Under the pieces are notes generated by a model. The model had not been told where the DNA came from and ran no database searches. It was given only the letters and a program-made list of their open reading frames with translations. This document shows, in pieces, positions 5,797-64,000 of a DNA stretch of 64,000 nucleotides. A program made the position numbers and the translations under genes. The stretch comes from an uncultured Acidobacteriota bacterium (GTDB lineage Bacteria; Acidobacteriota; Vicinamibacteria; Vicinamibacterales; CAVVIG01). Every line of letters begins with the position of its first letter. Positions within the stretch are counted from its first letter, which is position 1. The stretch lies in the NCBI GenBank assembly GCA_963770995.1, contig CAVYRS010000002.1:43500-107499 (forward strand). Direction: 5' to 3'.

Positions 5797-5915
5797 CTCG
5801 TGGTGAGCCCTTCGACTCACCGCTCATCCTGAGCTTGTCGAAGGATGAGCGGCTCGCTCAGGATGTACTTGTCGAACCACGAGCGAGACGGCTCGTCCTT
5901 CGACAGGCTCAGGAC
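5797..5915. repeat. REP family 2 cluster (ctcatcc-tgagcttgtcgaa-ggatgag type)
   Basis: Stacked hairpin units, gctcatcctgagcttgtcgaaggatgagcgg and ctcgtccttcgacaggctcaggacgag. Related units occur at 23171, 35505, 54045 and 54940. Confidence 0.8.
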
Positions 5916-6603
5916 GAGCGTGTCTAGCGTCGCCTCTCATCTCGGGATCGACCTCGCCGAGTACGACGCGCGCATTCGGACGTTCATCCCCGGCTACGAA
6001 TCGCTGCTGGCGGCCGGCGCGGCCGCGGTCCCCCGCAACGCGCGGACGATCGTCGATCTGGGTACAGGCACGGGCGCTCTGGCGTCGCGGTGTCTGAAAC
6101 GCGCGACCGGCGCGAGCCTGATCGGGATCGACGCGGATCCCGGCATGCTCGCCGTGGCGGCGCGCCGACTCGGATCCACCGCCCGGCCGACCCCGCGCGC
6201 GACGTTGGTCGCGGGCAACTTCCTGCGCACGCCGATTCCCCGCTGCGACACCGTCGTCGCGTCGTTCGCGCTGCACCATGTGCGGACGCGCGGCGCCAAG
6301 GCGCGGCTCTATGCGCGCATTCGATCGGCGCTGGGCCGCCGCGGCGTGCTGGTGTCCGTCGACTGCAATCCGTCGCCCGATCGCGCGCAGGCGCTCGCGC
6401 AGCGCGGCGCGTGGCTCGCACATCTCCGCCGCACCTACTCGCGGCGCGACGCTCAGGGGTTCCTCGACGCCTGGGCGAAAGAGGATGTGTACGTCCCGCT
6501 CGATACGGAGATTCGGATGCTCGAGCGCGCAGGCTTCAGCGTCGCCGTCGTGTCGAGGAGCGAATCCTTCGCGGTGCTCAGAGCTCGTGTAGAGCGGGTA
6601 TAA
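5845..6603 (+). CDS. Class I SAM-dependent methyltransferase (true start probably downstream of the REP-derived first ~25 codons)
   Basis: Motif I is IVDLGTGTGALA, followed by LIGIDADPGML and VVASFALHH. The N-terminal MSGSLRMYLSNHERDGSSFDRLRTS is a translation of the REP2 cluster. Confidence 0.8.
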   Translation: MSGSLRMYLSNHERDGSSFDRLRTSVSSVASHLGIDLAEYDARIRTFIPGYESLLAAGAAAVPRNARTIVDLGTGTGALASRCLKRATGASLIGIDADPGMLAVAARRLGSTARPTPRATLVAGNFLRTPIPRCDTVVASFALHHVRTRGAKARLYARIRSALGRRGVLVSVDCNPSPDRAQALAQRGAWLAHLRRTYSRRDAQGFLDAWAKEDVYVPLDTEIRMLERAGFSVAVVSRSESFAVLRARVERV

Positions 6604-6633
6604 TCCCCGGTCGGTCTGTTACTGCTGGAGGAT

Positions 6634-7834
6634 GTGATGGCACTTCTACGCCTGGCGAGAGTTGCGGCCCTGGGGGCCGTCGTCGCGGCAATCGCGGCGT
6701 CGGGCACGACGACATCGGGACAAACCGCCGCGGCTCAACCCACCAACGACGCGCCGAATCCGTATCAAAGCATCGAAGGCTGGGTCAAGCTGCCCGAGGG
6801 CCGGACGTGGGGATCGACGAGCGCCGTCGAGATCGACAAGGACGGCAGAGTCGATCTGGGTGGCCGAACGCTGCGGCGCGAACTCGCTGTCTCGATCGCG
6901 CCACCGGCAAGATGTCGGACCTGCCGACGATCCTCAAGTTCGATGCGACCGGCAAGCTCGTGCAAGAGCTTCGGCGCCGGCATGCTGATCTTCCCGCACG
7001 GCATCCACGTCGATCGCGACGGCAACGTCTGGGTGACCGACGGACAGGACAACGCCCAGGTGCCGCAGCGCGGCGCGCGCGCGGGCGGCGCGGCGGCGGG
7101 CGGTGCGCCGGCCGGCGGCGGCCGCGCACGCGGCGAAGCGCCGACCGGCCCGATCGGTCCGCGGGCGGGCGCGACGATCGGCAATCAGGTCTTCAAGTTC
7201 AGCCCCGACGGCAAGCTGCTGCTGACGCTCGGCAAGGCCGGCGGCGCGGCCGCGCCCGACTTCTTCTATCAGCCCAACGACGTCATCACCGCCGCCAACG
7301 GCGACATCTTCGTCGTCCGAGGGGCACGGCGCCGGCAACAACCGCGATTCTGAAGTTCGACAAGACCGGCAAGCTGATCAAGGAATGGGGCAAGCTCGGC
7401 AGCGGACCGGGAGAGTTCGACAGCCGCACGCGCTCGCGATGGATTCGCGCGGCCGGCTGTTCGTCGGCGATCGCAACAACAACCGCATTCAGATCTTCGA
7501 TCAGAACGGCACGTTCATCGAGGAGTGGAAGCAGTACAGCCGGCCGAGCGGCGTCTACATCGACAAGAACGACAACATCTACGTCGCCGATTCCGAGTCC
7601 GACTCGGTCTCGCAGAACCACAACGGCTGGAAGCGCGGCATCCGCATCGGCCGCGTGAAGGACGGCAAAGACGGCAAGGTCATCGCCTTCATTCCCGATC
7701 CCGAAACGCGGACCCGGTCGGCCGAGGCTTCATGCGGCACCAGCGCCGCGGAGGGCGTCGTCGTCGACGCGCAGGGCAACATCTACGGCGCGGAGGTCGG
7801 ACCGCGCCGGCTGATGCGGTATGTGAAGAAGTAG
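6634..7834 (+). pseudogene. NHL-repeat beta-propeller protein, tandem paralog of 7938..9053, interrupted by at least 5 frameshifts
   Basis: Segments colinear with the intact paralog are spread over three frames: QPTNDAPNPYQSIEGWVKLPEGRTWGSTSAVEIDKDG / SIWVAERCGANS / CLDRATGKMSDLPTILKFDATGKLVQ / SFGAGMLIFPHGIHVDRDGNVWVTD... / ILKFDKTGKLIKEWGKLGSGPGEF / LAMDSRGRLFVGDRNNNRIQIFD...YVKK. Confidence 0.85.
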
Positions 7835-7850
7835 AAACACTTCGGGTAAG

Positions 7851-7912
7851 CCATGAAAACACGAAAGCACGAAACCACTAATCGTCTTTCGTGTTTTCGT
7901 GATTTCGTGGCC
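7851..7912. repeat. Word hairpin, cacgaaa vocabulary
   Basis: The sequence is ccatgaaaacacgaaagcacgaaacc-loop-tctttcgtgttttcgtgatttcgtggcc. It lies between the NHL pseudogene stop and the NHL paralog start. Confidence 0.85.
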
Positions 7913-7937
7913 AATTCGTCATGCGCGGAGGAGTGAT

Positions 7938-9053
7938 ATGAAGCTGCGATCTTCAGTGGCATTCGCAGTCCTCGCCGGCGCCATCCTCTCCGCGCAGGGC
8001 GCCGTTCAACCCACCAACGATCTCCCGAACCCGTACCAGACCGTCGCCGCGCCGCTGAAGCTGCCCGAGGGCCGCACCTGGGGATCGACGAGCGCGATCG
8101 ACGTCGACAAGGACGGCACGTCGATCTGGGTCGGCGAGCGCTGCGGCGTCAACAAGTGCGCCGACGCGACGGGCAAGATGTCGCCGCTCGATCCGGTGCT
8201 GAAGTTCGACGCGTCAGGCAAGCTGGTGAAGAGCTTCGGCGCCGGCCTGATCGCCTTCGCGCACGGCATTCACGTCGACCGCGACGGCAACGTCTGGGTG
8301 ACGGACGCGAACGACAACCGGCCGACGCCGGCCCGCGGGCGAACCGGTGAAGCGCCCGCCGCGGCGCCGTCGACGCCTGCGACCGTCGGACACCAGGTGA
8401 TCAAGTTCAGTCCCGACGGCAAGGTGCTGTTGAAGCTCGGCAAGGCCGGCGTGGCCGGCAATCCGCCCGAGGCGCTGACCGAGCCCAACGACGTGGTCAC
8501 CGCGCCGAACGGCGATATCTTCGTCGCCGAGGGGCACGCGGGACAGAACCAGAACGCGCCGCCCGACACCGTTGCGCGCATCTCGAAGTTCACCAAGGAC
8601 GGCAAGTTCATCAAGAGCTGGGGCAAGCTCGGATCCGCGCCCGGCGAGTTCCGCACGCCGCACGGCCTCGCGTTCGATTCGCGCGGGCGGCTGTTCGTCG
8701 CCGATCGCGGCAACGTCCGCCTGCAGGTCTTCGATCAGGAGGGCAAGTTCCTCGAGGAGACGCTGCAGTTCAGCCGGCTGAGCGGCATCTACATCGACAA
8801 GAACGACGTGCTCTACGGCGCCGATTCGGAGTCGAGTCCCGACCTCCATCCCGGCAACTGGAAGCGCGGCATGCGCATCGGCAGCGCCAAGGATCTGAAG
8901 GTGATGTACCTCATCCCCGATCCCGACAATCCCGATCCGGCCAAGACCACGGCCGGCACCAGCGCCGCGGAAGGCGTCGTCGCCGACGCGAAGGGCAACG
9001 TCTACGGCGCGGAGGTCGGACCGAAGGGCGTCAAGAAGTACGTGAAGAAGTAA
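7938..9053 (+). CDS. Secreted NHL-repeat beta-propeller protein (intact)
   Basis: ATG at 7938 follows ggaggag and gives the signal peptide MKLRSSVAFAVLAGAILSAQG. NHL-like repeats include HGIHVDRDGNVWVTD, PNDVVTAPNGDIFVAEG, PHGLAFDSRGRLFVADRGN and VLYGADSES. Confidence 0.85.
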   Translation: MKLRSSVAFAVLAGAILSAQGAVQPTNDLPNPYQTVAAPLKLPEGRTWGSTSAIDVDKDGTSIWVGERCGVNKCADATGKMSPLDPVLKFDASGKLVKSFGAGLIAFAHGIHVDRDGNVWVTDANDNRPTPARGRTGEAPAAAPSTPATVGHQVIKFSPDGKVLLKLGKAGVAGNPPEALTEPNDVVTAPNGDIFVAEGHAGQNQNAPPDTVARISKFTKDGKFIKSWGKLGSAPGEFRTPHGLAFDSRGRLFVADRGNVRLQVFDQEGKFLEETLQFSRLSGIYIDKNDVLYGADSESSPDLHPGNWKRGMRIGSAKDLKVMYLIPDPDNPDPAKTTAGTSAAEGVVADAKGNVYGAEVGPKGVKKYVKK

Positions 9054-9140
9054 GAACTTAGAAGTTAGAAGGACTTCGTATCACGTCGTGCAGTTGCGAT
9101 CATTGTCCTTCTAACTTCTCAGTTCTAACTTCTAACTTCC
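9054..9140. repeat. Word hairpin, ttagaag vocabulary
   Basis: The sequence is gaacttagaagttagaaggac...gtccttctaacttctcagttctaacttctaacttcc, immediately after the NHL stop codon. Confidence 0.85.
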
Positions 9141-9345: not shown

Positions 9346-9373
9346 ATCGTAAGCGCGTATGATACGGCAGACC

Positions 9374-9449
9374 GTACGTGGGGTCCGGCTTCAGCCGGAC
9401 CTACAGCACTCGAGCCTCGCTGGTCCGCCTGAAGGCGGACCGCACGTAC
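9374..9449. repeat. REP family 1 dimer (GTACGTGGGGTCCGGCTTCAGCCGGACC ... GGTCCGCCTGAAGGCGGACCGCACGTAC)
   Basis: Two GC-rich stem-loops in inverted orientation carry GTACGTG/CACGTAC outer termini. They lie just upstream of the GGT start. Confidence 0.9.
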
Positions 9450-12115: not shown

Positions 12116-12532
12116 ATGCGACCGATATCCGCGTCCGCGATGTGCGCGGCATTGATCATACTGACCGGCTGCCGATCGCGTCCGGAACCGCCGGCGCGAG
12201 CCGTCGACGTGTGGCAGCAGGTCGGCGCGTGGAAGGGTCGCGGCTTCATGCAGACCGAAACGTTCACCGGCGACACCGGCGCGTTCCGCATCACCTGGGA
12301 GACGCGCAACGAAACGGCGCCCGGCGCCGGCCGGCTCCACGCCGTGTTTCGCAGCGGCGACAGCGGACGCGAGATCATGGACGCCGTGAAGACCGAAGGC
12401 ACCGGTCGAGGCGTCGAGCACGTCTCGGCCGAGCGCCCGCGGTGGTACTACCTCTCGATTGAGTCGGCGAACGTCGACTGGTCGATCACCGTGGAGGAGC
12501 AGATTCCGGGACAAACATCAGGCCGCCAATGA
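12116..12532 (+). CDS. Small lipoprotein of unknown function
   Basis: ATG at 12116 gives MRPISASAMCAALIILTGC with a lipobox. The stop overlaps the kinase start (ATGA at 12529-12532). Confidence 0.6.
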   Translation: MRPISASAMCAALIILTGCRSRPEPPARAVDVWQQVGAWKGRGFMQTETFTGDTGAFRITWETRNETAPGAGRLHAVFRSGDSGREIMDAVKTEGTGRGVEHVSAERPRWYYLSIESANVDWSITVEEQIPGQTSGRQ

Positions 12533-30020: not shown

Positions 30021-30123
30021 ATGTGGTGCGTCGGGTCCGGCTTCAGCCGGACCTATAGTGAGACCCTCGCGACGTCTGTAGGTCCGCCTAAAGGCGGACC
30101 CCATATACGCGGAGCCCACGTAC
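30021..30123. repeat. REP family 1 dimer bridging the GT4 and rSAM2 reading frames
   Basis: The units gggtccggcttcagccggacc and ggtccgcctaaaggcggacc are flanked by a cacgtac-like terminus. They translate in frame as YVGSAYMGSAFRRTYRRREGLTIGPAEAGPD. Confidence 0.85.
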
Positions 30124-33033: not shown

Positions 33034-33083
33034 CCTGATGAAGCGTGGTTGGATGGCGAACGGCGTCCAAGAACCTTGCCAGG

Positions 33084-33172
33084 GAATTGCGGGATTGGAG
33101 GATTGCGGGATTGCAGGATTTAATTGTTCAATTCCAATCCTGCAATCCTGCAATTCAGCAATCCTGCAATTT
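33084..33172. repeat. Word hairpin, gcaggatt vocabulary, in a divergent intergenic region
   Basis: The sequence is ggaattgcgggattggaggattgcgggattgcaggatt-taattgttcaatt-ccaatcctgcaatcctgcaattcagcaatcctgcaatt. The same word family occurs at 52597. Confidence 0.85.
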
Positions 33173-33227
33173 AAGGAGGGCACGCCTGCTGCATACGTCG
33201 CGAAGCGAACCCTGCAGGCGCGGGCAG

Positions 33228-34574
33228 ATGCGGAACCCCCTTACGGGCGACGAAAGCTCGTTTCAAAAGCCGAAATCACACGCGGTTGCCCTGTTTGCGT
33301 ACAAGGCTGCCGCGGACGTGGCCGCGAAGCTCGTGCTGTTCGCGATCACGGTCGTCGCGGCTCGCCGGCTGACGCCGGTGGCGTTCGGCGTCTTCTCGCT
33401 GGGCTCGACGCTCGGCTGGATGGCGGCCGTCGGCGCCGACTTCGGCATGCAACTGCATGTGGCCCGCGCGGTCGCACGCGCACCCGATCAGGCCGCGGCG
33501 CTACTCGCGGCCTGGTTGCGCGTCCGGTTGTGGACGGCAGCAGCGGCGCTCGCCCTCGTCGTCGTAGGAGTGGCGGCCGCAGGATCGAGCGCAGACGTCG
33601 CTGGCCCGATCGTCGTCCTCGCGCTCGTGTACGCCGTCAGCGGCCTGGTCGAGTTCCTGCACTATTTCTATCGCGGGCTGTCCCGCAGCGACATCGAATC
33701 GTCGCTGACAGTTTTCCAGCGGCTGGCGACCCTGGTCTTCGGATTCGCGGCGCTTGCGTGGCGGCCGACGGTCGGGACGCTCGCGATCGCGATCCTCATC
33801 CCGGCGGTCGCGACGTTGATCGTGAGCCTCGGAATCGCGCGGCACCTCTCGAATGGGTGCATGGGGTCCGCCTGTAGGCGGACCGACACACCCGCTGGTC
33901 CGGCTAAAGCCGGACCCCACGTACAAAGACAAGCCGGCCCCCACGTACGGACAGTCTTCCGCCGCGACGTCGCGCCGATCGGCGCGGGGATCCTGCTCTC
34001 AGCGCTCTACTTTCGGATCGATGTGTTCCTCGTGCAGCTGTGGTCGGGCACGGAGTCGGTGGCGCTCTACAACGCGGTGTTTCGCGTGATCGAAGGCCTC
34101 CGCCTGTTTCCAGCTGCGGCGATGGCCGTCGCGCTGCCGGCGCTGTGCCGCGCGCGCGATCTGCGTCCGCTGATGAACGTGTCGGCGACCCTCGTCGGCG
34201 GCGCCTGCCTGACGACCGCAATGGCGTGGCCGGCCGCGGACTGGATCGTGCCGTTCCTGTTTGGCGACCGCTACGCGCCCGCGATCCCCGCCTTTCGCAT
34301 CCTGCTGCTGTCGTTTCCTCTGCTGTCGCTGAACTACGCGTTGACGCATCAGCTCATCGGGTGGGACGGCCAGCGGGCGTATGCCGGCATCTGCGCGACT
34401 GCCCTTCTCGTGAACCTTGCGCTCAACGCCCGGCTCATACCCGCGCTGTCCATCGAAGGCGCGGCGTGGGCGACGATTGGCACCGAATTCGTCGTCACCG
34501 CCGGTTGCGTCATCGCACTCGCGCGAGTGAGCACGGTCCCAGAGCTGACGGTGGCGGATTCGAGGATCGGATGA
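33228..34574 (+). CDS. Polysaccharide biosynthesis/MOP-family flippase (Wzx-like) with an in-frame REP1 dimer in a central loop
   Basis: ATG at 33228 gives a protein with about 12 TM helices (AARRLTPVAFGVFSLG, LYNAVFRVIEG...). The residues GCMGSACRRTDTPAGPAKAGPHVQRQAGPHVRT are encoded by REP1 units. Confidence 0.8.
   Translation: MRNPLTGDESSFQKPKSHAVALFAYKAAADVAAKLVLFAITVVAARRLTPVAFGVFSLGSTLGWMAAVGADFGMQLHVARAVARAPDQAAALLAAWLRVRLWTAAAALALVVVGVAAAGSSADVAGPIVVLALVYAVSGLVEFLHYFYRGLSRSDIESSLTVFQRLATLVFGFAALAWRPTVGTLAIAILIPAVATLIVSLGIARHLSNGCMGSACRRTDTPAGPAKAGPHVQRQAGPHVRTVFRRDVAPIGAGILLSALYFRIDVFLVQLWSGTESVALYNAVFRVIEGLRLFPAAAMAVALPALCRARDLRPLMNVSATLVGGACLTTAMAWPAADWIVPFLFGDRYAPAIPAFRILLLSFPLLSLNYALTHQLIGWDGQRAYAGICATALLVNLALNARLIPALSIEGAAWATIGTEFVVTAGCVIALARVSTVPELTVADSRIG
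33863..33948. repeat. REP family 1 units inside the Wzx coding sequence
   Basis: The units are ggggtccgcctgtaggcggacc and ggtccggctaaagccggaccccacgtac, plus a degenerate gccggcccccacgtac. Confidence 0.85.
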
Positions 34575-45278: not shown

Positions 45279-47140
45279 ATTCAACAACGCATCGATCTGC
45301 CACGAAAGCACGAAAGCACGAAACATCAAACTTATTCGGTTTTCGTGTTTTCGTGATTTCGTGGCTGATCCCGACCGCCGCGATCCTCTCGTCGGTTGCG
45401 GTCAGCGCGCAATCGAAAACCAAGACGCATGTCGAAACCCTCGCCTCACCTCGCCTCGAAGGCCGCCTCGCGGGCTCGAACGGCGAGAAGCTCGCCAGCG
45501 ACTACATCGTCGCGGAGCTGCAGAGAATCGGCGCGAAGCCGCTTCCCGGCCAGCGCGACTATCGCCTGCCGTTCGACTTCACGGCCGGCACGCGCGACGG
45601 CGGGTCGCGCATCACGGTCAAGGGTCAGACATTCGCGACCCCATCCGACGTTCGCGCGCTCTCGTTCGCCGACAACGCCGAGGTCTCGGCCGACATCGTG
45701 TTCGCCGGCTACGGCATCGTCGTGCCCGAGACGCAGGATTTCGGCTACGACAGCTACGCCACGCTCGACGTCAAGGACAAGGTGGTGCTCGTGCTCCGGT
45801 ACTTCCCGGAGGACGCGGATCAGAAGACGCGCGCGATTCTGGCCCGGTACGCGGATCTGCGATACAAGGCGCAGGCGGCCCGTCAGCGCGGCGCCAAAGC
45901 CATGCTCGTCGTCACCGGCCCCAGGTCGCCAAACGCCGGCGAAACGATCCCGATGACGTTCGACACCGCCCTCGCGGGATCGGGCATCGTCGCCGCGAGC
46001 ATCAGCGCCTCGGTCGCCAAGGCGATCTTCACGTCAATCCCTGACAAAACCCTGGAGTCGGTCCAGCAGTCGTTCGACTCGGGTAACCCGCACGTCGCCG
46101 GGTTCGCGATCCCCAATTCGACGGTGAGCGTCCGCACGGCGGTCGAGCGCGAGAAGCGCACCGGCCACAACGTCGTCGGGTACCTGCCGGCGACGACACC
46201 GGTCGGCACCACGGCGAAGCCTTGGGTGGCGCTCGGCGCTCATTACGATCATCTGGGTCACGGCGAGACCGGCAATTCGCTGGCGGGCAAAGACGAGACC
46301 GGCAGGGTGCATGTCGGCGCGGACGACAACGCGTCTGGATCGTCGGCGGTCCTGAGTGTCGCCGCGACGCTCGCCGCCCAGCCGCGCAGGCGCAACGTCA
46401 TATTCGGCTTCTGGTCGGGCGAAGAACTGGGACTGATCGGATCCGCAGCGTTTGCGGCTGCGCCGCCGGTGCCACTCGATCACGTGGCTGCCTACTTGAA
46501 TTTCGACATGGTCGGCCGCATGCAGGACAACAAGCTGACGATTCAAGCGGCCGGCACGAGTCCCGTGTGGGCGAAACTGATCGAGCAGGCCAACATCGCC
46601 GCCGGCTTCGACGTGCACGTCCAGACGGATCCGTATCAGCCGACTGACGTCGCGACGTTCAACAACGCCAGCGTGCCGTGCCTGAGCTTCTTCACGGGCA
46701 CGCACGTCGACTACCACAAACCGACAGACACCGCCGACAAGATCGACTACGAGGACCTCGATCGCGTCGTCGAGTTTGCGGCGGCCATCGTGCGCCGCCT
46801 CGGGGACACGGTGGAAGCGCCGCAGTTCACCAAGGTCGAACAGCAGCAGCAGAGCGGTGGCGGCCGCGCCGGCGTGCGCATTTTCACGGGAACGATCCCC
46901 GACTACGCTACCGACGCCAAAGGCCTGTTGCTGGGCGGCGTCATCGGCGGCGGGCCGGCCGAGCAGGCGGGGCTGAAGAAGGGCGACGTCATCGTCGAGA
47001 TCGCCGGCCAGACCATAACCAACATCTACGACTACACGTACGCGCTCGAGCTGCTCAAGATTGGCCAGCCCGCAAAGGTCATCTACGTCCGCGACGGGAC
47101 GCGCATCGAGACGACGCTGACCCCGGCTGCACGAAAGTAG
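45275..47140 (+). CDS. M28 family aminopeptidase with PA domain and C-terminal PDZ domain (start ambiguous: ATG 45275 or GTG 45353)
   Basis: Motifs are HNVVGYLPA, LGAHYDHLGHG, GADDNASGSSAVL, FWSGEELGLIGS and NFDMVG. The PDZ stretch is GGPAEQAGLKKGDVIVEIAG. The first 30 codons from 45275 read through word hairpin I. Confidence 0.85.
   Translation: MNSTTHRSATKARKHETSNLFGFRVFVISWLIPTAAILSSVAVSAQSKTKTHVETLASPRLEGRLAGSNGEKLASDYIVAELQRIGAKPLPGQRDYRLPFDFTAGTRDGGSRITVKGQTFATPSDVRALSFADNAEVSADIVFAGYGIVVPETQDFGYDSYATLDVKDKVVLVLRYFPEDADQKTRAILARYADLRYKAQAARQRGAKAMLVVTGPRSPNAGETIPMTFDTALAGSGIVAASISASVAKAIFTSIPDKTLESVQQSFDSGNPHVAGFAIPNSTVSVRTAVEREKRTGHNVVGYLPATTPVGTTAKPWVALGAHYDHLGHGETGNSLAGKDETGRVHVGADDNASGSSAVLSVAATLAAQPRRRNVIFGFWSGEELGLIGSAAFAAAPPVPLDHVAAYLNFDMVGRMQDNKLTIQAAGTSPVWAKLIEQANIAAGFDVHVQTDPYQPTDVATFNNASVPCLSFFTGTHVDYHKPTDTADKIDYEDLDRVVEFAAAIVRRLGDTVEAPQFTKVEQQQQSGGGRAGVRIFTGTIPDYATDAKGLLLGGVIGGGPAEQAGLKKGDVIVEIAGQTITNIYDYTYALELLKIGQPAKVIYVRDGTRIETTLTPAARK
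45299..45365. repeat. Word hairpin, cacgaaa vocabulary
   Basis: The sequence is gccacgaaagcacgaaagcacgaaac-atcaaacttattcgg-ttttcgtgttttcgtgatttcgtggc. Its right arm shares 25 identical nt with the copy at 7851. Confidence 0.9.
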
Positions 47141-49904: not shown

Positions 49905-49965
49905 GCCACGACGTCACGAAGACACGAAACCAATCGGGTTCTTCGTGTCTTTGTGTCTTCGTGGC
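49905..49965. repeat. Word hairpin, cacgaag/cacgaaa vocabulary
   Basis: The sequence is gccacgacgtcacgaagacacgaaacc-aatcggg-ttcttcgtgtctttgtgtcttcgtggc. Confidence 0.85.
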
Positions 49966-50838: not shown

Positions 50839-52171
50839 TCTCCAGACGCGCATTTCTCGGCGTGGCGACGACTGCTCTTTCCGGTGTGGCGCAGGGCTTC
50901 AGCCCTGCGATCCAGGTTCAAGCCCCGCGCGTCGATGCGGTCCGGCTGCGCAAGCGAATCGAAGACGCTCAGCGTCTTCGGACGACCTGCCGGCGGCACG
51001 TTCGCCGACGGCGTGAGCCGCACCGCGTACTCGGATGCCGACATCGAAGGCCGCCGCTACGTGATGGCGCAGATGCAGCGCGGCCGGACTCCAGCCGCGC
51101 ATCGACCCCGCCGGCAACATCTTCGCGCGGCGCGAGGGAACCGAGCCGCGTCTTGCCGCCGATTCTGTTCGGGTCGCACATCGACTCCGTTCCGGGCGGC
51201 GGCAATTTCGACGGGGATCTCGGGTCGCTGTCCTCCCTTGGTGTGCTCGAAGCGCTCGCCGCCGCCGGCGTCCGCACGCGGCACCCGCTCGAGATGGTCG
51301 TGTGGGCGCACGAGGAGAGCTTTGCGTTCGGCCGCGGCCTCGCCTGCAGCCGCATCGTCGCCGGCGACTTCGCGCCGGCGGATCTCGACGAAGTCTGGAA
51401 CGGCCTGCGGCGCGCCGACGCGATCCGGAAGATCGGTGGCAACCCCGATCGCATGGCCGAGGCGCAGCGGCCGAAGGGATCGCACCACTGCTACCTCGAG
51501 CTGCACATCGAGCAGGGCGGCACGCTCGAGCGCGCGCGCGTCCCCGTCGGCGTGGTCGAAGGCATCGTCGCGATCGATCGCTACGACGCGACGATTACCG
51601 GCGTCGCCAATCACGCCGGCACGACGCCGATCGCCGAACGCCACGACGCCATGCTGGCGGCTGCGCACCTGACGGTCGCGGTCCGCGAAGCCGTGACGCG
51701 CGTGCCCGGACGCCAGGTCGGCACCGTCGGCCACATCGAGGTGACGCCGAACTCGCCCAACGTAATCCCCGGTCTGGTGCGGCTGTCGGTCGAACTTCGC
51801 GATCTTCAATCCGCAAAAGCTCGTGACGATGATGGAGGAGATACGCGCCCGAGCCCTCGAGATCGCCGCGGCGACGCAGACGACGATCGCGTTCAAGACC
51901 ATGGCGCGAGTGGATCCGGCGGCCGCGGCGCCGGAGATCCAGGCAGCGATCGAGCGCGCGGCGAAGTCGTTACGCCTCGAATCGTCGCGCCTGCCGAGCG
52001 GCGCCGGACACGATGCGCAGATGATGGCGCGCCTCGGGCCGATGGGGATGATCTTCGTGCCGAGCGTCGGCGGCGTCAGCCATTCGCCGAAGGAGCTGAC
52101 GGCCTGGCAGGACTGCGCGCAACGGCGCCGACGTCCTGCTGCGCACGATCCTCGAAATGGATCGCGTCTAG
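50835..52171 (+). pseudogene. M20 family Zn-dependent hydrolase (allantoate amidohydrolase / N-carbamoyl-L-amino-acid hydrolase type) with Tat-like signal and at least 5 frameshifts
   Basis: The start is MISRRAFLGVATTAL. Later segments lie in different frames: GVSRTAYSDADIEGRRYVMAQM / RIDPAGNIFARREG / ILFGSHIDSVPGGGNFDGDLG...HCYLELHIEQG...ITGVANHAGTTP / MMEEIRARALEIAAATQ...LPSGAGHDAQMMA...FVPSVGGVSHSPKE / NGADVLLRTILEMDRV-stop. Confidence 0.8.
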
Positions 52172-52246
52172 AACGCAAAGCACGCAAAGAGCGCAGCGAA
52201 GCCTCCAGGCCATGAATTCTTTGCGGTCTTCGCGGTCTTGGCGTTC
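52171..52246. repeat. Word hairpin, cgcaaag vocabulary
   Basis: The sequence is gaacgcaaagcacgcaaagagcgcagcgaagcc-loop-ttctttgcggtcttcgcggtcttggcgttc, between convergent stops. Confidence 0.85.
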
Positions 52247-52591
52247 TTACTTCAGGGCGATGTAGAGGTTGAGCCCGCCCATCAGCAGGAAGAACGGCGC
52301 GACGAAGAGCCATTCCTGCCCCTCGCCCGCCAGCACCGCGATGAAGGCCAGGAGCCCGGCCCCCAGCCAGCCCGCAGCCGTCACCAGGATGAATTGATGG
52401 GCGCGGCCAACCGCATCGTCGTTCCAGCGCCGTGTCCGCCGCTGCTTGATCTCCGAACGCGCGACGCGCGAGGCGAAGAACACGACGAAGGCGGCCGCCG
52501 TCCACGGCTGACCGCCCGACACGCCGACGACGAGCACCGTGACGGCGCCAATCGCGAAGAGCGACAGCCAGAATGCGCGAAAAGCCGTCAC
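52247..52591 (-). CDS. Small integral membrane protein, unknown function
   Basis: A GTG at 52591 gives TAFRAFWLSLFAIGAVTVLVVGV... with 3-4 hydrophobic helices. The ORF N-terminal extension is a translation of hairpin M. Confidence 0.55.
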   Translation of the reverse strand: MTAFRAFWLSLFAIGAVTVLVVGVSGGQPWTAAAFVVFFASRVARSEIKQRRTRRWNDDAVGRAHQFILVTAAGWLGAGLLAFIAVLAGEGQEWLFVAPFFLLMGGLNLYIALK

Positions 52592-52596
52592 AATGA

Positions 52597-52691
52597 CATT
52601 GCAGGATTGCGGAATGGCAGGATTGCAGGATTGCCATTGGGAAATTGACGCAATGAATCCTGCAATTCTGCAATCCTGCAATCCCGCAATG
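52597..52691. repeat. Word hairpin, gcaggatt vocabulary
   Basis: The sequence is cattgcaggattgcggaatggcaggattgcaggattgcc-attgggaaattgacg-caatgaatcctgcaattctgcaatcctgcaatcccgcaatg. Confidence 0.9.
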
Positions 52692-52697
52692 TCACTG

Positions 52698-55136
52698 TCA
52701 CCTCCCGCCCGCCGTCGTCCGCACTGCTTCGGGCTTCAGGAAGCGGCTGATGAATTCCTCGAGCCGGGTGAACGCGTACAGGTATCGCTTGTGCAGCAAC
52801 GGTTCGTGCGTATCGTCCGGGAAGACGATCAGCTCGTGGTGGACGTTGTGCGCGCGCAGCAGCTGCACCAGGCCCGTCGTCTGGGAAAACTGCACGTTCC
52901 GATCGTCGTCTCCGTGGACGAGCAGCACCGGTGATTTCCACGTGTCGATCGCCGCGATGGCGGACGACTGGTACGACACGTTGTCACGATCGAGCGAGCT
53001 GCCCCAGAGGTGCACGCCCGCCAGGTCGACGCCGACCTTGAAGATGTCGGAGTTGCGCGCCAGCGCCTGTGCCGTCAACACGCCGCCGTAGGACAGACCC
53101 CAGATGCCGATGCGGTTGGGATCGACATCGGGTCGCGTCTGCAGGTACCGTCCTGCCGCGGCCACATCCTGATATTCCGCGTTGCCGCGACCAGCGGTGT
53201 TCGGCGCTGTGCGGAACGATTTGCCGTACCCGATGCCGCTCCGGTAGTTCACCGACAGCACGACAAAGCCGCGACTCGCCAGCCACTGATTGACGGCGTA
53301 CGCCACGTGATAGAAGTGCATGTAGTGATAACCGAGCAGCATCTGCCGCACGGGGCCGCCGTGGACGAACACGATGGCCGGGCGCCGCGTACCGGCGACG
53401 CCACCCGTTGGAAGAAACAGCTGATTGTGAATCTCGAGGCCGTCTGGCGCCTTGATGAGGACGTTCTCGGGCACGACGTGGGCATCGAGCGGGAACCCGG
53501 TCAACGACGGGTAGACGTACTTCGCGGCGCCGCCCGCGGCCGGCACGAGGCCGACGCCGAACGGACGCTTCGCGTCGCCGCCGAGCACTGCGACCTGTTT
53601 TCCTGACGACAGCGCGACCGGATAGGTCTCGATCGTCTCGCCGCGCGTCAGCTGTTCGGCCGTGCCGCCGGCTGTCGGCACCTTCCACACGTGCCGCCGC
53701 TCGATATCGCCGGCGTTGGTCGAGTAGAAGAGGACCTTGCGATCGGCGGACAACGCGGTGTGCTCGACTGCGCCCTCACCCGGCGTCAGCACAGCCGGTG
53801 TCGGCTGGCTGTTCGAGATGCTCACCGAATACCACCGCACCCACTCGTCGGGCTCCGCCTGAAAGATGACGTGATCGGCGTCGGCCCATTGAATCGCGTT
53901 GACGTTCGTGAAGTCCTTCTCGTCCTTCTGGTTGTGCCAGAACTCGCGCCCTTCGCCCGTCGCCGCGTCGGCGACCCAGAACGACAGCGTGTAGCCGCCG
54001 ATGAAGGCAGCGGTCATCAGCCCCGGGCGCGAATCGTCGCGAGCAGGCTCATCTCCTCCCGATCGCCCTGAGCTTGTCGAAGGGCCGCGCCCGCCTCGCC
54101 CAGTTGCCAGAGGGTTGTATGCCGGGCCGTTCGGGTTGCCGAGGCTCCCGGTTCCCCGCTGTGCCTGCTGACCGAACGGCGTCCCCGGCCGGCGGATGAA
54201 CGCGATGCGCTTTGCGTCGGCCGACCAGGTCGGACTCGTGTCGTGATCGACGCTCGGCGCCAGGAACGTGACCGTTTTCGCGCGCGTGTCGTACACGCCG
54301 ACGAAGCTGTGATCGACGCGGTTGCTGACGAACGCGATCTTCGTCCCGTCGGGCGACCACTTCGGATTGCTGTTCGTGCCCCACGCTTTGATCAGGGGCC
54401 CGGAGGTCCGGCTGAAGCCGGACCCCACGTACGATTTTGAGGTGGTTGCGCTTGCTGTCGTGGGGCCCGCCGATCCAGCAGTCGTGGGGTCCGCCTTTAG
54501 GCGGACCGGGACCGGAAGCGCGTAGATCTGCCCATCCTTCGCGAACACGACCGACGCGCCATCAGGCGACAACTCCGGCGTCGTGCCCTCGCCCAGCTTC
54601 CATGCAGTGCCGCCGGCGGTTCGCGCTGCCCAGATCGTGCGATCCGCTCCTGCGGGATTGCCGGTCGGGTTCGCCACCCACCCTTCGCGATTCGGCGGCG
54701 TCCCCCGCACGAACACCACCGTCGCGCCGTCGTCGGAAATCCTGATATCGCTCAACTCGATTCCGTCGTCCTTCAAGAAGCTCGTGAGCCGAACGGGCTT
54801 GAAGTCCGGAGCAGACGCCGCGAAGACATTGCGCAAGCCGTGCTCGTACGCAGTCCACGCGACCCGATCCGCGCGCCTCGCGGAGACGAGCTCGGTCGGA
54901 TACCCTGGCGCCAGAAACGGCTCGATCGTCGGCGCCGCGTAGGCTTGCCCTGAGCGAGCTTGTCCTTGGACAGGCCTGTCCTGAGCGAATCGCTCATCCT
55001 TCGACAAGCTCAGGATGAGCGGTGAGTCGAAGGACTCAGGAATGGCGAGTCGAAGGGTCGCTGCGCGCGGCGCGGGCGCGAGCTGCAGCGTTCCGGCGAG
55101 AAGGACAACGACGCCGATCGGGCCAAGGCGCTTCAT
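52698..55136 (-). CDS. Secreted S9 family serine peptidase (prolyl oligopeptidase/DPP type: N-terminal beta-propeller plus C-terminal alpha/beta hydrolase) containing three in-frame REP insertions
   Basis: ATG at 55136 overlaps the DinB stop (ATGA). The signal peptide is MKRLGPIGVVVLLAGTLQLAPAP. Motifs are WSPDGTKIAFVS, IVFVHGGP, GIWGLSYGG (nucleophile elbow) and LLVHGDDDRNV. The ORF is continuous through the repeats at 54045-54090, 54404-54508 and 54940-55062. Confidence 0.85.
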   Translation of the reverse strand: MKRLGPIGVVVLLAGTLQLAPAPRAATLRLAIPESFDSPLILSLSKDERFAQDRPVQGQARSGQAYAAPTIEPFLAPGYPTELVSARRADRVAWTAYEHGLRNVFAASAPDFKPVRLTSFLKDDGIELSDIRISDDGATVVFVRGTPPNREGWVANPTGNPAGADRTIWAARTAGGTAWKLGEGTTPELSPDGASVVFAKDGQIYALPVPVRLKADPTTAGSAGPTTASATTSKSYVGSGFSRTSGPLIKAWGTNSNPKWSPDGTKIAFVSNRVDHSFVGVYDTRAKTVTFLAPSVDHDTSPTWSADAKRIAFIRRPGTPFGQQAQRGTGSLGNPNGPAYNPLATGRGGRGPSTSSGRSGGDEPARDDSRPGLMTAAFIGGYTLSFWVADAATGEGREFWHNQKDEKDFTNVNAIQWADADHVIFQAEPDEWVRWYSVSISNSQPTPAVLTPGEGAVEHTALSADRKVLFYSTNAGDIERRHVWKVPTAGGTAEQLTRGETIETYPVALSSGKQVAVLGGDAKRPFGVGLVPAAGGAAKYVYPSLTGFPLDAHVVPENVLIKAPDGLEIHNQLFLPTGGVAGTRRPAIVFVHGGPVRQMLLGYHYMHFYHVAYAVNQWLASRGFVVLSVNYRSGIGYGKSFRTAPNTAGRGNAEYQDVAAAGRYLQTRPDVDPNRIGIWGLSYGGVLTAQALARNSDIFKVGVDLAGVHLWGSSLDRDNVSYQSSAIAAIDTWKSPVLLVHGDDDRNVQFSQTTGLVQLLRAHNVHHELIVFPDDTHEPLLHKRYLYAFTRLEEFISRFLKPEAVRTTAGGR
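54045..54090. repeat. REP family 2 unit inside the S9 coding sequence
   Basis: The hairpin ccctgagcttgtcgaaggg is preceded by gctcatc. It is read as GPSTSSGRSGGDEP. Confidence 0.7.
54404..54508. repeat. REP family 1 dimer inside the S9 coding sequence
   Basis: The units are aggtccggctgaagccggaccccacgtac and gtggggtccgcctttaggcggacc. They are read as VRLKADPT...SYVGSGFSRTSGP. Confidence 0.9.
54940..55062. repeat. REP family 2 cluster inside the S9 coding sequence, just after the signal peptide
   Basis: The central unit is gctcatccttcgacaagctcaggatgagcgg, with flanking units tgagtcgaaggactca and ccctgagcgagcttgtcc. It is read as ESFDSPLILSLSKDERFAQDRPVQGQ. Confidence 0.85.
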
Positions 55137-55636
55137 CGCTTCCCTCCAGTTCGGTAAAACGCGATCATGTCCATCGGCTTTGCAGGGGACGCTCCCAGCT
55201 GCCGCAGCATCGTCGTCACCTGCCCGCGATGGTAGCTCGCGTGATTGACGACGTGTTGCAGCATCTGCCAGATCGGCGATGAACCCTCCGCCCCGGTGAG
55301 CAGCTTGTAGTCGATCACGCGCTCGACGCCATCTTCGCCGAGCGCGTCGACGAACGCGCGCATCTTCGCCTCGTGCGAGGTCCATGCGGATCGCAACGAG
55401 GCGACATCGGGAAACTGATCGAACGGCAGGAGCGCCGTGGGCGACTCGCCGTGCCACCGCTGGTACCACGCCCACTCCGCCGCATACGTGTGCGCCACGG
55501 TATCGCGAACGGATTTGAAGCTGCTGCCGAGATCGCGGGTGAACTGATCCGGCGTCAACGCATCGAGCGCGTCGAGCAGCCGGTCGCGCGCCCAGTAGTG
55601 ATAGTCCACCAGAGTCCGCAGATCCTGGATGTTCAT
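55133..55636 (-). CDS. DinB family (damage-inducible, four-helix bundle) protein
   Basis: The sequence runs MNIQDLRTLVDYHYWARDRLLDAL...VAHTYAAEWAWYQRW...MLQHVVNHASYHRGQVTTMLRQLG. Confidence 0.85.
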   Translation of the reverse strand: MNIQDLRTLVDYHYWARDRLLDALDALTPDQFTRDLGSSFKSVRDTVAHTYAAEWAWYQRWHGESPTALLPFDQFPDVASLRSAWTSHEAKMRAFVDALGEDGVERVIDYKLLTGAEGSSPIWQMLQHVVNHASYHRGQVTTMLRQLGASPAKPMDMIAFYRTGGKR

Positions 55637-55663
55637 CGAAGCCTCATCGCCACGTTCGAAACA

Positions 55664-55693
55664 GCCACGAAATCACGAAAACACGAAAAAGAC
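55664..55693. repeat. Half copy (one arm) of the cacgaaa word element
   Basis: The sequence gccacgaaatcacgaaaacacgaaaaagac has no inverted arm within the next 60 nt. Confidence 0.65.
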
Positions 55694-55721
55694 AACAGGC
55701 TGCGCCACATTCCGCTAACAC

Positions 55722-56312
55722 TCAGCGAACAATTGCCGCGCGCAGAATCCTGTCCAGTTTCGGGAATTCCCGATCGAGATATGCGTTCCCGCCGTCGAAC
55801 AGCGGCTGCTGCCGCCCGGCGCGAATCCCGCCGCCGGATTCCTCGCCGTAGTCGCTGAAGAGCGCGTCCGCGACGCCCATCCCCTCGACGACCTCGCCGA
55901 ACGGCGCGAAGCCCTGCGTATCCTGCACGGAGTTGTCGCGCAGGCTTATGTACACCTGCGTCGTGCGCCCGTTCGCATCCTTGAAGGCGAACGCCACGCG
56001 TCCGCGCACCACCGACGCCTTGTTCGGGTCGTCGGGGATCGTCGCGGATCGCCACTGCGTCGACACCCGTGGATCGCCGTTGATCCCGAACTGCGCCCAC
56101 TGGCCCTTCACGACGCGGAAGAAACGGGTGTCGTCGTAGTAGCCGCTGGTCACGAGCTCGTGGAACCGATCCGCGCCGTGCGGCGCCCAATCGCGATGGA
56201 CCGCGATGACGATCGCGCCTTTCGTCGTCTCCAGCCGAACCCGAAACTGCGATGGCGCCGACGCCGCCGTCTGCATCAGCGTCAGCGCCACCGCCGCGAG
56301 AATCACGCGCAT
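55722..56312 (-). CDS. Secreted cyclophilin-type peptidyl-prolyl cis-trans isomerase
   Basis: The signal peptide is MRVILAAVALTLMQTAASA. Motifs are HRDWAPHGADRFHELVTSGYYD, FFRVVKGQWAQFG and FAPFGEVVEGMGV. Confidence 0.85.
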   Translation of the reverse strand: MRVILAAVALTLMQTAASAPSQFRVRLETTKGAIVIAVHRDWAPHGADRFHELVTSGYYDDTRFFRVVKGQWAQFGINGDPRVSTQWRSATIPDDPNKASVVRGRVAFAFKDANGRTTQVYISLRDNSVQDTQGFAPFGEVVEGMGVADALFSDYGEESGGGIRAGRQQPLFDGGNAYLDREFPKLDRILRAAIVR

Positions 56313-62608: not shown

Positions 62609-62617
62609 GACCGGGCA

Positions 62618-62702
62618 GGTCCGCCTGAAGGCGGACCCCACGTACGACCTGACCCGCTCCGCACGACTCTTACAGTACGTGGGGTCCGGCTTCAGCCGGA
62701 CC
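62618..62702. repeat. REP family 1 dimer
   Basis: The units are aggtccgcctgaaggcggaccccacgtac and gtacgtggggtccggcttcagccggacc. They are separated by a 28-nt spacer and abut the permease stop codon. Confidence 0.9.
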
Positions 62703-64000
62703 TAATCGGCTCGCAGCGCCAGCGCGGGATCCACGCTCGCCGCTCGCCGCGCGGGGAACCCGCACGCGGCGATCGAGACGATGAAGAGGACGAGTATCGC
62801 GAGGCCGAAGCTGAAGACGTCGAAGCTCGTCACGTTGAACAACAGGCTCGCGAGGGCGCGGCCGGTGGCGGCGGCGGCGAGCACGCCCATCGACGCACCG
62901 ATCGCGAACAGCACCAGACCGCGCCGGACGACGAGCGCGACGATTTCTCCGCGGCGCGCGCCGAGCGCGAGCCGGATGCCGAACTCACGCTGCCGTTGCC
63001 CGACGCCGTAGGCAATGACACCGTAGACGCCGATGCTCGCCAGCAGGAGCGCGATGCCCGCAAAGGCGCCCAGGAGCATCGTCTGCAGCCAGCGCGACGC
63101 CAGCGATCGATCCACGACCGCCTCGAGCGTGTGCGCATCGTAGACCGGCTGCTCGGCGTCCACCGACCGAATCGCGCCCATCAGCGCGGGGGCGATCGTC
63201 CCCGGATCCGTCCGGGTACGGACGGCGAGGGCCATGCGGTCCTGCGTCCGCTGCCGGAAGGGGAAGTAGACCTGCGCACGTGTGTCCTCGTCGAGCCGAT
63301 CGTGGCGAATGTGCCCGGCCACGCCGACGACCGACAGCCACGGCAGGTTCATCACAGGGATCCGCACGCGCTTGCCGATCGGATCCGCATCGCCGAAGAC
63401 GGCCCTCGCGAGCTGCTCGTCGATGATCGCCACCTGCGGATCGTTTTCACCGTCGCGGTCGGGGAACGTGCGGCCGCGGAGCGGGATCTCGAGCGTGCGG
63501 AAATAGTCGGGTGTTACAGACCGATAGTCCACGTTCTTCAGCTTCAGCAGATTCGGATCGACGCCCTCGAATTCAATCGGCCCCGTCTGTGTTCCGCCGG
63601 CGAGCGGCAGGCGGTTGACGAGGCTCGCCGATGCGACCTCGGGCAGCGCGCGCACGCGATCGAGAATGCGCTCGCCGAACGCCGCGACGTCCGGATCCTT
63701 TGGGTATTTCGAGCGCGGAATCGCCAGGTGCAGCGAGTAGACGCGCTCGGCGTTGAAGCCAGGACTCACCTGGCGCAGGGCGGCGAAGCTGCGTCCGAGC
63801 AGCGCGGCCGCGATCACCAGCCAGCACGTGACGCCGATTTGCGCGGCAACGAGGACATCGCGCCGCCGGGCCCGCCGCGCACTGCCAGCCGTCCCGCGCG
63901 AGAAGTCGCTTCCCGACGCCGAGAGCCCACTGCGCGAGGCTTCGATGGCCGGCCAGGCGCCGATCAAGCCTGCGACGGTGGCCAGCGCCGATGCCGCAAA
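62702..64000 (-). CDS. ABC transporter permease, FtsX/MacB-like (ADOP family), N-terminus outside the window
   Basis: The C-terminal FtsX domain is LGAFAGIALLLASIGVYGVIAYGVGQRQREFGIRLALGARRGEI...VDPALALRAD. It is preceded by a MacB-type periplasmic domain. The frame stays open to the window edge. Confidence 0.85.
   Translation of the reverse strand, partial: FAASALATVAGLIGAWPAIEASRSGLSASGSDFSRGTAGSARRARRRDVLVAAQIGVTCWLVIAAALLGRSFAALRQVSPGFNAERVYSLHLAIPRSKYPKDPDVAAFGERILDRVRALPEVASASLVNRLPLAGGTQTGPIEFEGVDPNLLKLKNVDYRSVTPDYFRTLEIPLRGRTFPDRDGENDPQVAIIDEQLARAVFGDADPIGKRVRIPVMNLPWLSVVGVAGHIRHDRLDEDTRAQVYFPFRQRTQDRMALAVRTRTDPGTIAPALMGAIRSVDAEQPVYDAHTLEAVVDRSLASRWLQTMLLGAFAGIALLLASIGVYGVIAYGVGQRQREFGIRLALGARRGEIVALVVRRGLVLFAIGASMGVLAAAATGRALASLLFNVTSFDVFSFGLAILVLFIVSIAACGFPARRAASVDPALALRAD

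Follow-up and report, generated by a model that had tools for sequence, protein, structure and literature searches.

How do short palindromic repeats that mostly lie outside genes come to occupy three places within one gene for a secreted enzyme, each time in frame and free of stop codons? The question is raised by an S9 (prolyl-oligopeptidase family) serine peptidase gene at 52698-55136, minus strand, of a 64,000-nucleotide (nt) stretch from an uncultured Acidobacteriota bacterium (GenBank assembly GCA_963770995.1, contig CAVYRS010000002.1, positions 43,500 to 107,499), the whole of which is referred to here as the window. The original prediction held that the continuous 812-codon open reading frame (ORF) of this gene carries three in-frame stretches resembling repetitive extragenic palindromic (REP) sequences, and both the frame and the stretches stand, with coordinates right to within a few bases. 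The comparisons described below make it very probable that repeats of the REP or REPIN type, the latter being inverted REP doublets, were copied into disordered loops of the protein and filtered by selection, with existing nests of repeats attracting further copies.

The host gene itself shows the marks of being functional. The minus-strand reading frame ending at 52698 runs without interruption, and the listed ORF reaches a GTG at 55475; the true start is the ATG at 55136, which is used by the orthologs and yields 812 codons, because this codon and the stop codon of the DinB-family gene upstream overlap as ATGA, with an equal 4-nt overlap in the closest ortholog locus, L001. The product comprises an N-terminal signal peptide, whose cleavage is predicted between APRA and A from the conserved PRA-A pattern of the orthologs, a beta-propeller matching Pfam PD40 and DPPIV_N, and a C-terminal alpha/beta-hydrolase domain (PF00326, Peptidase_S9, E 2e-33). 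The AlphaFold2 model has a predicted template modelling score (pTM) of 0.78, and its best Foldseek matches are bacterial DPP4 (7y4f) and S9 peptidases. A total of 120 orthologs were listed at 70-81% identity, all those bearing a source name belonging to Vicinamibacterales; ortholog loci of 8-22 kb were examined as DNA, and the order RsgA, PPIase, DinB, S9, small ORF and M20 peptidase is conserved. The S9 triad, consisting of Ser682 (GLSYGG), Asp743-745 and His777, falls in invariant alignment columns. As the folded core compared with L001 gives a nonsynonymous divergence (dN) of 0.065, a synonymous divergence (dS) of 0.758 and a dN/dS of 0.086, the gene is evidently under purifying selection, and its product is predicted to be a functional secreted S9 peptidase.

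The repeats in question belong to two families. REP1 (GGTCCGSCTNNAGSCGGACC) is present in 13 copies in the window and REP2 (CTCRTCCTTCGAYARGCTCAGGAYGAG) in five, where 100 shuffles lead one to expect 0.00 of either; two of the REP1 copies (54405-54424 and 54488-54507) and one of the REP2 copies (54993-55019) lie in the peptidase gene, while six of the eight REP1 sites are extragenic. The REP1 unit is a G+C-rich perfect palindrome with an 8-bp stem and a 4-nt loop, accompanied on one side by a tag that reads (GTAC)GTGG-GG in most copies and GTAG in the window units at 30081 and 44099, as well as in units of the loci L010 and L012 and the metagenomic contig L140. Ten of the 13 units are arranged as five inverted doublets, each pairing one 'GGC' with one 'GCC' stem variant; the tags lie outside in three doublets (9382/9422, 30034/30081 and 33865/33897) and inside in two (62618/62683 and the in-gene pair). 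On these features REP1 can be classed as a GTAG/GTGG-tagged REP occurring as REPIN-type inverted doublets. REP2 combines a constant loop, TCGAYARGCTC, with co-varying stems in its multiple copies, the stems CTCATCCT, CTCGTCCT, CTCGTGGT and GGCCCT each pairing with their own complement; neither a tag nor a transposase was identified for this family.

At the start of the mature protein (site 1), alignment of the DNA with L001 leaves 75 extra nt, or 25 codons, in the window at 54968-55042, minus strand, in addition to a 6-nt indel nearby. This insertion is a REP2 cluster encoding approximately IPESFDSPLILSLSKDERFAQDRPV, and it includes the hairpin CTCATCCT / TCGACAAGCTC / AGGATGAG (54993-55019), which follows the REP2 pattern exactly and recurs as an identical 27-mer at 5823-5849. 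Its closest relative in the window is the intergenic REP2 cluster at 5810-5925, between two methyltransferase genes, with which a 56-nt stretch (~5821-5876) is identical at 54 of 56 positions. Residues 21-56 have an occupancy of 0.00 across the 120 orthologs. Only one of the six frames through the insert is free of stops, namely the one in use, and 29 of 54 frames are stop-free in the intergenic copies. The wider REP2-like context (54940-55062, minus strand) appears to be an older remnant around the new insert. L001 likewise carries an older REP2-like remnant at this position, GCCCTTCCACTCGCCGAAGGACAAGCCCGCTCAGGGC, and has an N-terminal tail about 16 amino acids (aa) longer than most other orthologs; the new copy therefore seems to be nested in an old one. 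From these alignments site 1 is read as a lineage-specific insertion.

Site 2 (54396-54512, minus strand; aa 209-247) is a hypervariable propeller loop between strands E203-208 and E254-260, encoding PVRLKADPTTAGSAGPTTASATTSKSYVGSGFSRTSGP, and consists of two perfect 8-bp-stem REP1 hairpins and a half-site. The GCC-type hairpin lies at 54488-54507 with the tag CGTGGGG on its inner side, and the GGC-type hairpin, together with its CCCCACGTAC tag, at 54405-54432. The latter, tag included, matches the intergenic 9382 unit (9374-9401) in reverse complement at 28 of 28 positions, that unit being part of the tags-outside intergenic doublet at 9371-9449; the intergenic doublet at 62612-62704 is head-to-head with tags inside, in the layout of the in-gene pair. 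In the spacer between the hairpins, the sequence reads as a partial third REP1 half-site (GTCGTGGGGCCCGCC, 54457-54471), which arose either by duplication on the spot or as a nested copy that was aborted. Loop 2 measures 12 aa (NPGVVTVEPERP) in distant orthologs (Longimicrobiales, Gemmatimonadota) and 10-52 aa in Vicinamibacterales, where the median is 25 aa; the near orthologs have a median of 26 aa, and the query has 38 aa. The claim that the in-gene segments are copies of intergenic families is thus borne out at both sites by the identities just given.

It may be objected that the segments were never inserted, being instead low-complexity linkers that resemble REPs, or the coding sequence from which the intergenic REPs were derived. 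Sites 2 and 3 do fall within loops of low complexity in every Vicinamibacterales ortholog, and site 3, described below, adds no length and has no significant fold. However, convergence cannot explain identities of 54/56 and 28/28 that take in tags and perfect palindromes where shuffles expect 0, site 1 is unoccupied in every one of the 120 orthologs, and the 25-mer REP1 unit is found in more than 120 unrelated contigs, mostly in non-coding sequence, and beside a transposase gene. For sites 1 and 2 the objection is effectively refuted, and for the gene as a whole it is very improbable. Comparison with orthologs had been proposed together with the original prediction, and its outcome agrees with insertion: at sites 2 and 3 the loops of distant orthologs are short (medians of 12 and 11 aa), and site 1 is present in none of the 120.

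Both repeat families were looked for in the ortholog loci. The exact REP1 pattern has 0 matches there, and the exact REP2 core is found in L001 alone; REP1 copies were missed because the flanking stem bases differ slightly in other species, and a relaxed hairpin expression then recovered in-gene copies in L003, L010 and L012. Those in L003 and L012 are doublets in the position and frame seen in the window, L010 has a single unit, and decayed copies occupy loop 2 in L005, L006, L007 and L011. A further locus, L083, is 74% identical to the window in amino acid sequence, with a dS of 0.79 and a four-fold-site identity of 0.55, and both of its 20-nt hairpins match those of the window at 40 of 40 positions, in the same site and frame, with spacers of 19 nt in L083 and 63 nt in the window. 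Had a copy inherited from a common ancestor decayed neutrally at the four-fold divergence, this identity would have a probability of about 5e-11, and a single ancient insertion decaying neutrally is rejected on this ground. The hairpins must therefore have been inserted anew, made uniform with the genomic family, or kept by selection. The insertions at site 2 may or may not have been strictly independent of one another, because a palindromic element gives equal peptides in either orientation.

Selection brings in a different account of the same hairpins, in which they are maintained as nucleic-acid elements, acting as RNA or DNA structures in the pausing of transcription or translation, in mRNA stability, or in the binding of a REP-associated transposase or nucleoid protein. 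The perfect conservation in L083 at a four-fold identity of 55%, the retention of perfect hairpins at site 2 in L003 and L012, and RNA folds of sites 1 and 2 that are steadier than shuffled sequence (z -3.05 and -3.26) all speak for it. Nevertheless, most orthologs have no intact hairpin at the site, several having decayed copies (L005, L006, L007 and L011) or unrelated classes of sequence, and close relatives differ; the closest ortholog, L001, has no REP1 at site 2, and distant orthologs have no insert at all. Moreover, the hairpin equals the genome-wide family consensus, as is expected of recent copying or homogenisation. Taken together, an account of the in-gene hairpins as selected elements appears improbable.

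Repeats in loop 2 are not confined to the window. In a set of 121 aligned sequences, composed of the 120 orthologs and the query, 75 have recognisable loop-2 peptide motifs, which fall into six classes. The REP1 class (VRLKPD...SGFSRT) accounts for 27 sequences scattered over the tree, with hairpins at the DNA level in L003, L010, L012 and L083. The octamer-repeat class (GRAGGAG, 28 sequences) has intergenic copies in other loci; octamer-repeat elements that share the architecture of the window's octamer hairpins described below but have a different unit, (GGGCAGGT)n, are in frame in loop 2 of L015, L001 and L008 and intergenic in L001 and L082. The 'QGR' hairpin class comprises 8 sequences, with one 8-bp-stem hairpin in L002 only and none in L084 of the same class, and the 'SAK' class comprises 6, with intergenic copies in another locus. 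The 'SAK' element, GCCGAAGCGCGCAGCGCGAAGGTGG, is translated in loop 2 of protein P0021 (L082), and it occurs twice in tandem in L084 at 12318-12381, intergenic and just downstream of another species' S9 gene. No repeat support was found in the DNA for RQIPPGG (6 sequences), and neither for this class nor for PSEGG (3 sequences) is a repeat origin demonstrable at that level. In a tree of the core protein, members of different loop classes intermingle, and the content of the loop is not the same in near-identical relatives. These distributions point to loop 2 as a turnover hotspot, with loops re-hit in many lineages. Two further places in the protein vary among orthologs: a fourth loop, at query aa 437-444 (about 53805-53828 of the window), has REP1-type peptides, VRLKPDTTG... 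and repeated KPDTTG, in P0094, P0099, P0114 and P0096 and not in the window, and an 11-aa insert is found at query aa 579 in P0001 and P0008.

A more far-reaching view of this turnover is that loop 2, and to a lesser extent loop 3 and the N-terminal tail, would constitute a long-lived REPIN docking site, at which hairpins are actively kept identical to a genomic master by transposase-mediated exchange, gene conversion, or selection for a nucleic-acid function, and at which successive families replace each other. We regard this as unlikely, if conceivable; were it true, the repeats of the cell would in effect supply a secreted enzyme with diversity in its surface loops.

Site 3 presents an older state. 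A decayed REP2-like hairpin (GGCCCT / TCGACAAGCTC / AGGGC) at 54065-54086, minus strand, encodes GPSTSSGR within a Gly/Arg-rich disordered loop; its core, GGCCCTTCGACAAGCTCAGGGC, has 17 exact nt in common with REP2 and a compensated 5-bp stem, and its RNA fold is unremarkable (z -0.12). The original prediction had this unit as a REP2 insertion like the others, of which the likeness to REP2 holds and the equal standing does not, as the unit is older, decayed, and without added length. A better-preserved REP2, GTCCTTCGACAAGCTCAGGACGAGC, stands at this position in L001, and on this ground site 3 is taken to be an old, decayed insertion common to the nearest orthologs. The PSTSSGRAG motif is scattered over 9 of the 121 sequences. 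The loop has a median length of 44 aa in near orthologs and 11 aa in distant ones (Gemmatimonadota, Longimicrobiales), with 40 aa in the query. The Gly/Arg-rich loop (GRGGRGGGGRGGRGRG; aa 328-367, about 54036-54155) is itself a Vicinamibacterales-specific expansion, and in some orthologs, such as L010, it displays the octamer-repeat GRAGGAG pattern. The three sites accordingly differ in age, site 1 being lineage-specific, site 3 old and shared, and site 2 a hotspot of turnover.

Modelling of the fold had also been proposed with the original prediction, in order to see whether the inserts map to surface loops. In the AlphaFold2 model, the predicted local distance difference test (pLDDT) falls below 50 at aa 1-4, 6-65, 214-243 and 328-367, which cover all three REP sites, and in a few short segments elsewhere; the flanking beta-strands are confident. 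The model thus suggests that the inserts are disordered surface-loop peptides. If translated, sites 1 and 2 would yield the predicted tryptic peptides LAIPESFDSPLILSLSK and SYVGSGFSR, respectively.

Since the source is probably a metagenome-assembled sequence, an assembly artefact, namely a chimeric join at the repeats, or a decaying pseudogene also has to be weighed. Repeats break assemblies, many REP1 matches lie at contig ends, and the exact protein is not on record elsewhere. On the other side, the gene is colinear with its orthologs on both sides of every insert, with synteny kept; REP1 is in frame at the identical site of the independent assemblies L003, L012 and L083; a sequencing read is longer than the repeats; and the dN/dS of 0.086 and the intact catalytic residues are not those of a pseudogene. 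Such an origin is hardly credible.

Further copies of REP1 show that its entry into coding frames extends to other genes. In the window, a flippase gene (Polysacc_synt, 33045-34574, plus strand) contains a REP1 doublet at 33865-33916 in frame and within a single Pfam match (aa 88-369), encoding ...MGSACRRTDTPAGPAKAGPHV... in reading frames other than those that the peptidase copies use. The exact 25-mer REP1 unit was found in more than 120 metagenomic contigs, mostly in non-coding sequence and in many cases at contig ends. In the 80 that were analysed, coding-type codon-position GC was present on both flanks in one frame in nine, and a coding signal on both sides was wanting in about 71. Domains supported by Pfam that span or flank a copy include an LPG-synthase transmembrane protein, an SMC hinge domain in two contigs at the same site (L124 12596-12620 and L165 3539-3563; GPAEAGPH), the winged-helix domain of an HRQ1/MrfA-type helicase (L149), and an ABC ATPase linker. 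Use is made of all three reading frames.

A candidate mobilising enzyme was found in one of these contigs. L140 contains, at 472-1149 on the minus strand, a gene for a REP-associated tyrosine transposase (RAYT) with an HVH motif, which scores 82.1 bits against NCBIfam NF047646 REP_Tyr_transpos, where the cutoff is 80, and 30.2 bits against Pfam Y1_Tnp, where it is 23. It is flanked by REP1 units at 458-482 and about 1062-1092, the GTAG-tagged one overlapping the stop codon and the other lying upstream. By its layout this is the REPtron arrangement for the REP1 family, so that an association with RAYT is present for the family in a metagenomic relative. The gene was reached by tblastn over all the DNA of the analysis, window included, with an approximate E. 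coli RayT sequence that served as a probe only, and the match in L140 was verified with NCBIfam and Pfam. Mobility of REP1 itself is hinted at indirectly, by its presence in some orthologs and absence from others and by copies that are nearly identical.

From these observations, the following course of events is proposed. Short non-autonomous palindromic repeats would have been copied into three permissive disordered segments, consisting of the N-terminal tail, the propeller loop and the Gly/Arg-rich loop. Selection would have retained those insertions whose length is a multiple of three, which are stop-free in the frame used and which lie inside loops; the survivors would be translated as disordered surface peptides, presumably close to neutral, leaving the enzyme core unaffected. 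A loop that already bears repeats would then act as a nest, in which new copies insert into or replace old ones, either by single-strand transposition of the RAYT type next to REPs already in place or through recombination or gene conversion involving genomic copies. In this manner the loops may have turned over repeatedly across Vicinamibacterales lineages while the hairpins stayed fresh. The original prediction had offered insertion bias and filtering for surface loops as alternatives, and both seem to apply: site 1 is open in only one of six frames, and loops are re-hit with nested copies.

Several observations weigh against this proposal. No RAYT was found in the 64-kb window by Pfam searches of ten short ORFs or by tblastn with the approximate E. 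coli RayT probe, so mobilisation of REP1 in this genome is a supposition drawn from the metagenomic relative. Clear target-site duplications and defined element ends were not established, the candidates being CCGGTC, 6 nt that may be duplicated at site 2, and CCTTCGACTCRCC, which recurs at site 1 as a direct repeat of 13 nt; apart from the hairpins and tags, the insert sites showed no terminal inverted repeats. Low pLDDT is in part an automatic outcome of gappy alignment columns. Finally, the 40/40 identity of the L083 hairpins is not predicted by a purely passive-passenger model, and calls for re-insertion, gene conversion or selection.

That REPs can lie in frame inside genes is known from earlier work. 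Di Nocera, De Gregorio and Rocco (2013, BMC Genomics 14:522, PMC3733652) described REPs bearing GTAG and CGTC tags, their head-to-head and tail-to-tail dimers and a GTGG tag variant, the last of these in the GTAG-20 elements of Opitutus terrae. While most of these REPs are intergenic, in-frame intragenic copies code for 20-30 aa, and some ORFs are hit twice; the examples include O. terrae uvrA, Thauera, and Xanthomonas recB with different REPs at about the same site, and many of the hit genes are for DNA repair or helicases (PMC3733652). The present repeats resemble them in being tagged palindromes, in forming dimers and in lying in frame within genes, to which the metagenome sample adds SMC and an HRQ1-type helicase. 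They differ in their Vicinamibacterales (Acidobacteriota) host, in a new host gene with three sites and two families, and in the recurrent occupancy of a loop by several repeat classes over about 120 species-level orthologs, with hairpins identical across a dS of about 0.8. It is this recurrent-insertion hotspot that is notable.

The behaviour had been ascribed in the original prediction to Rickettsia palindromic elements (RPEs), and it is indeed established for them, but it is not special to Rickettsia, as the catalogue of GTAG and CGTC REPs in ORFs makes plain. RPEs are the original in-frame case, as Ogata et al. (2000) is cited in PMC3733652, where RPE-4 and RPE-6 are assigned to the CGTC type. 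The shared trait is that in-frame palindromic repeats lie in ORFs that are kept functional, with inserts thought to be on the protein surface; in contrast, the phylum is unrelated, the sequence family is presumably another, RPE-1 is longer, and the present host lives freely in soil and has a large genome, not the reduced one of an intracellular bacterium. Compared by behaviour rather than by sequence, the repeats act like RPEs and are presumably not members of the RPE-1 to RPE-10 families.

The REPIN-RAYT system (Bertels and Rainey 2011, PMC3116915; Nunvar et al.) offers a further parallel, with inverted REP doublets, a single-copy HUH Y1 transposase flanked by cognate REPs as in L140, and a family sequence conserved across related genomes. 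REPINs have been described as extragenic, whereas a measurable fraction of copies here lies in coding frames and the RAYT is located in a metagenomic relative rather than in the window. PARCELs (palindromic amphipathic repeat coding elements; Roske et al. 2010, PMC2996958) and in-frame MITEs (miniature transposable elements bearing inverted repeats; Delihas 2011, PMC3184786) also represent palindromic or inverted-repeat mobile sequences that give peptide segments. However, PARCELs are amphipathic coding modules of greater size, and MITEs are marked by terminal inverted repeats of 15-30 bp together with target-site duplications, neither of which was clearly seen here.

Other repeats surround the gene. 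A giant perfect hairpin of octamers, (GCAGGATT)n and their inverse (families D4 and D6), extends over 52590-52698, starting at the S9 stop codon, with a dG of -66 kcal/mol and a z of -9.3; a second giant octamer hairpin of GCAGGATT and its inverse lies at 33078-33178, and such octamer runs with their inverse make up a third repeat family in the window. A further octamer-repeat palindrome family, GCCACGAAAGCACGAAAC ... GTTTCGTGATTTCGTGGC, is present at 7850-7911, 45299-45365, 49905-49965 and 55664-55689, the last copy sitting between the DinB and PPIase genes. An Rfam E-value scan over 52000-56000 returned no match in the gene and only meaningless sub-threshold miRNA matches, all on the downstream palindrome. 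At 6600-9057, the window contains two tandem paralogous stretches of about 1.2 kb that are 76-85% identical (families D1, D7, D8, D12, D16 and D18), and the ORF at 7857-9053 has Pfam matches to NHL-repeat beta-propellers.

The locus provides a clean natural example of how selfish palindromic repeats turn into protein sequence in a soil phylum of free-living bacteria with large genomes, and it lets one see the ancestral state, the nesting of one insertion and the family of the transposase. To the cases already described it adds a clade and a host gene that are both new, the combination of three sites and two families within a single gene, nested insertion beside the ancestral state, and a dense orthologous hotspot in which repeat classes turn over and the hairpins do not evolve neutrally. 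Six loop-peptide classes over about 120 orthologs, together with hairpins that remain identical at saturated synonymous divergence, make this a tractable system for the turnover rates of REPs and REPINs, and the hotspot lets the homogenisation of in-gene copies with the genomic population be assessed. In Acidobacteriota metagenomes, REP-derived peptides, VRLKPDTT, SGFSRT, PSTSSGRAG and GRAGGAG among them, will be a source of contamination in alignments, in domain boundaries and in calls of 'hypothetical protein'.

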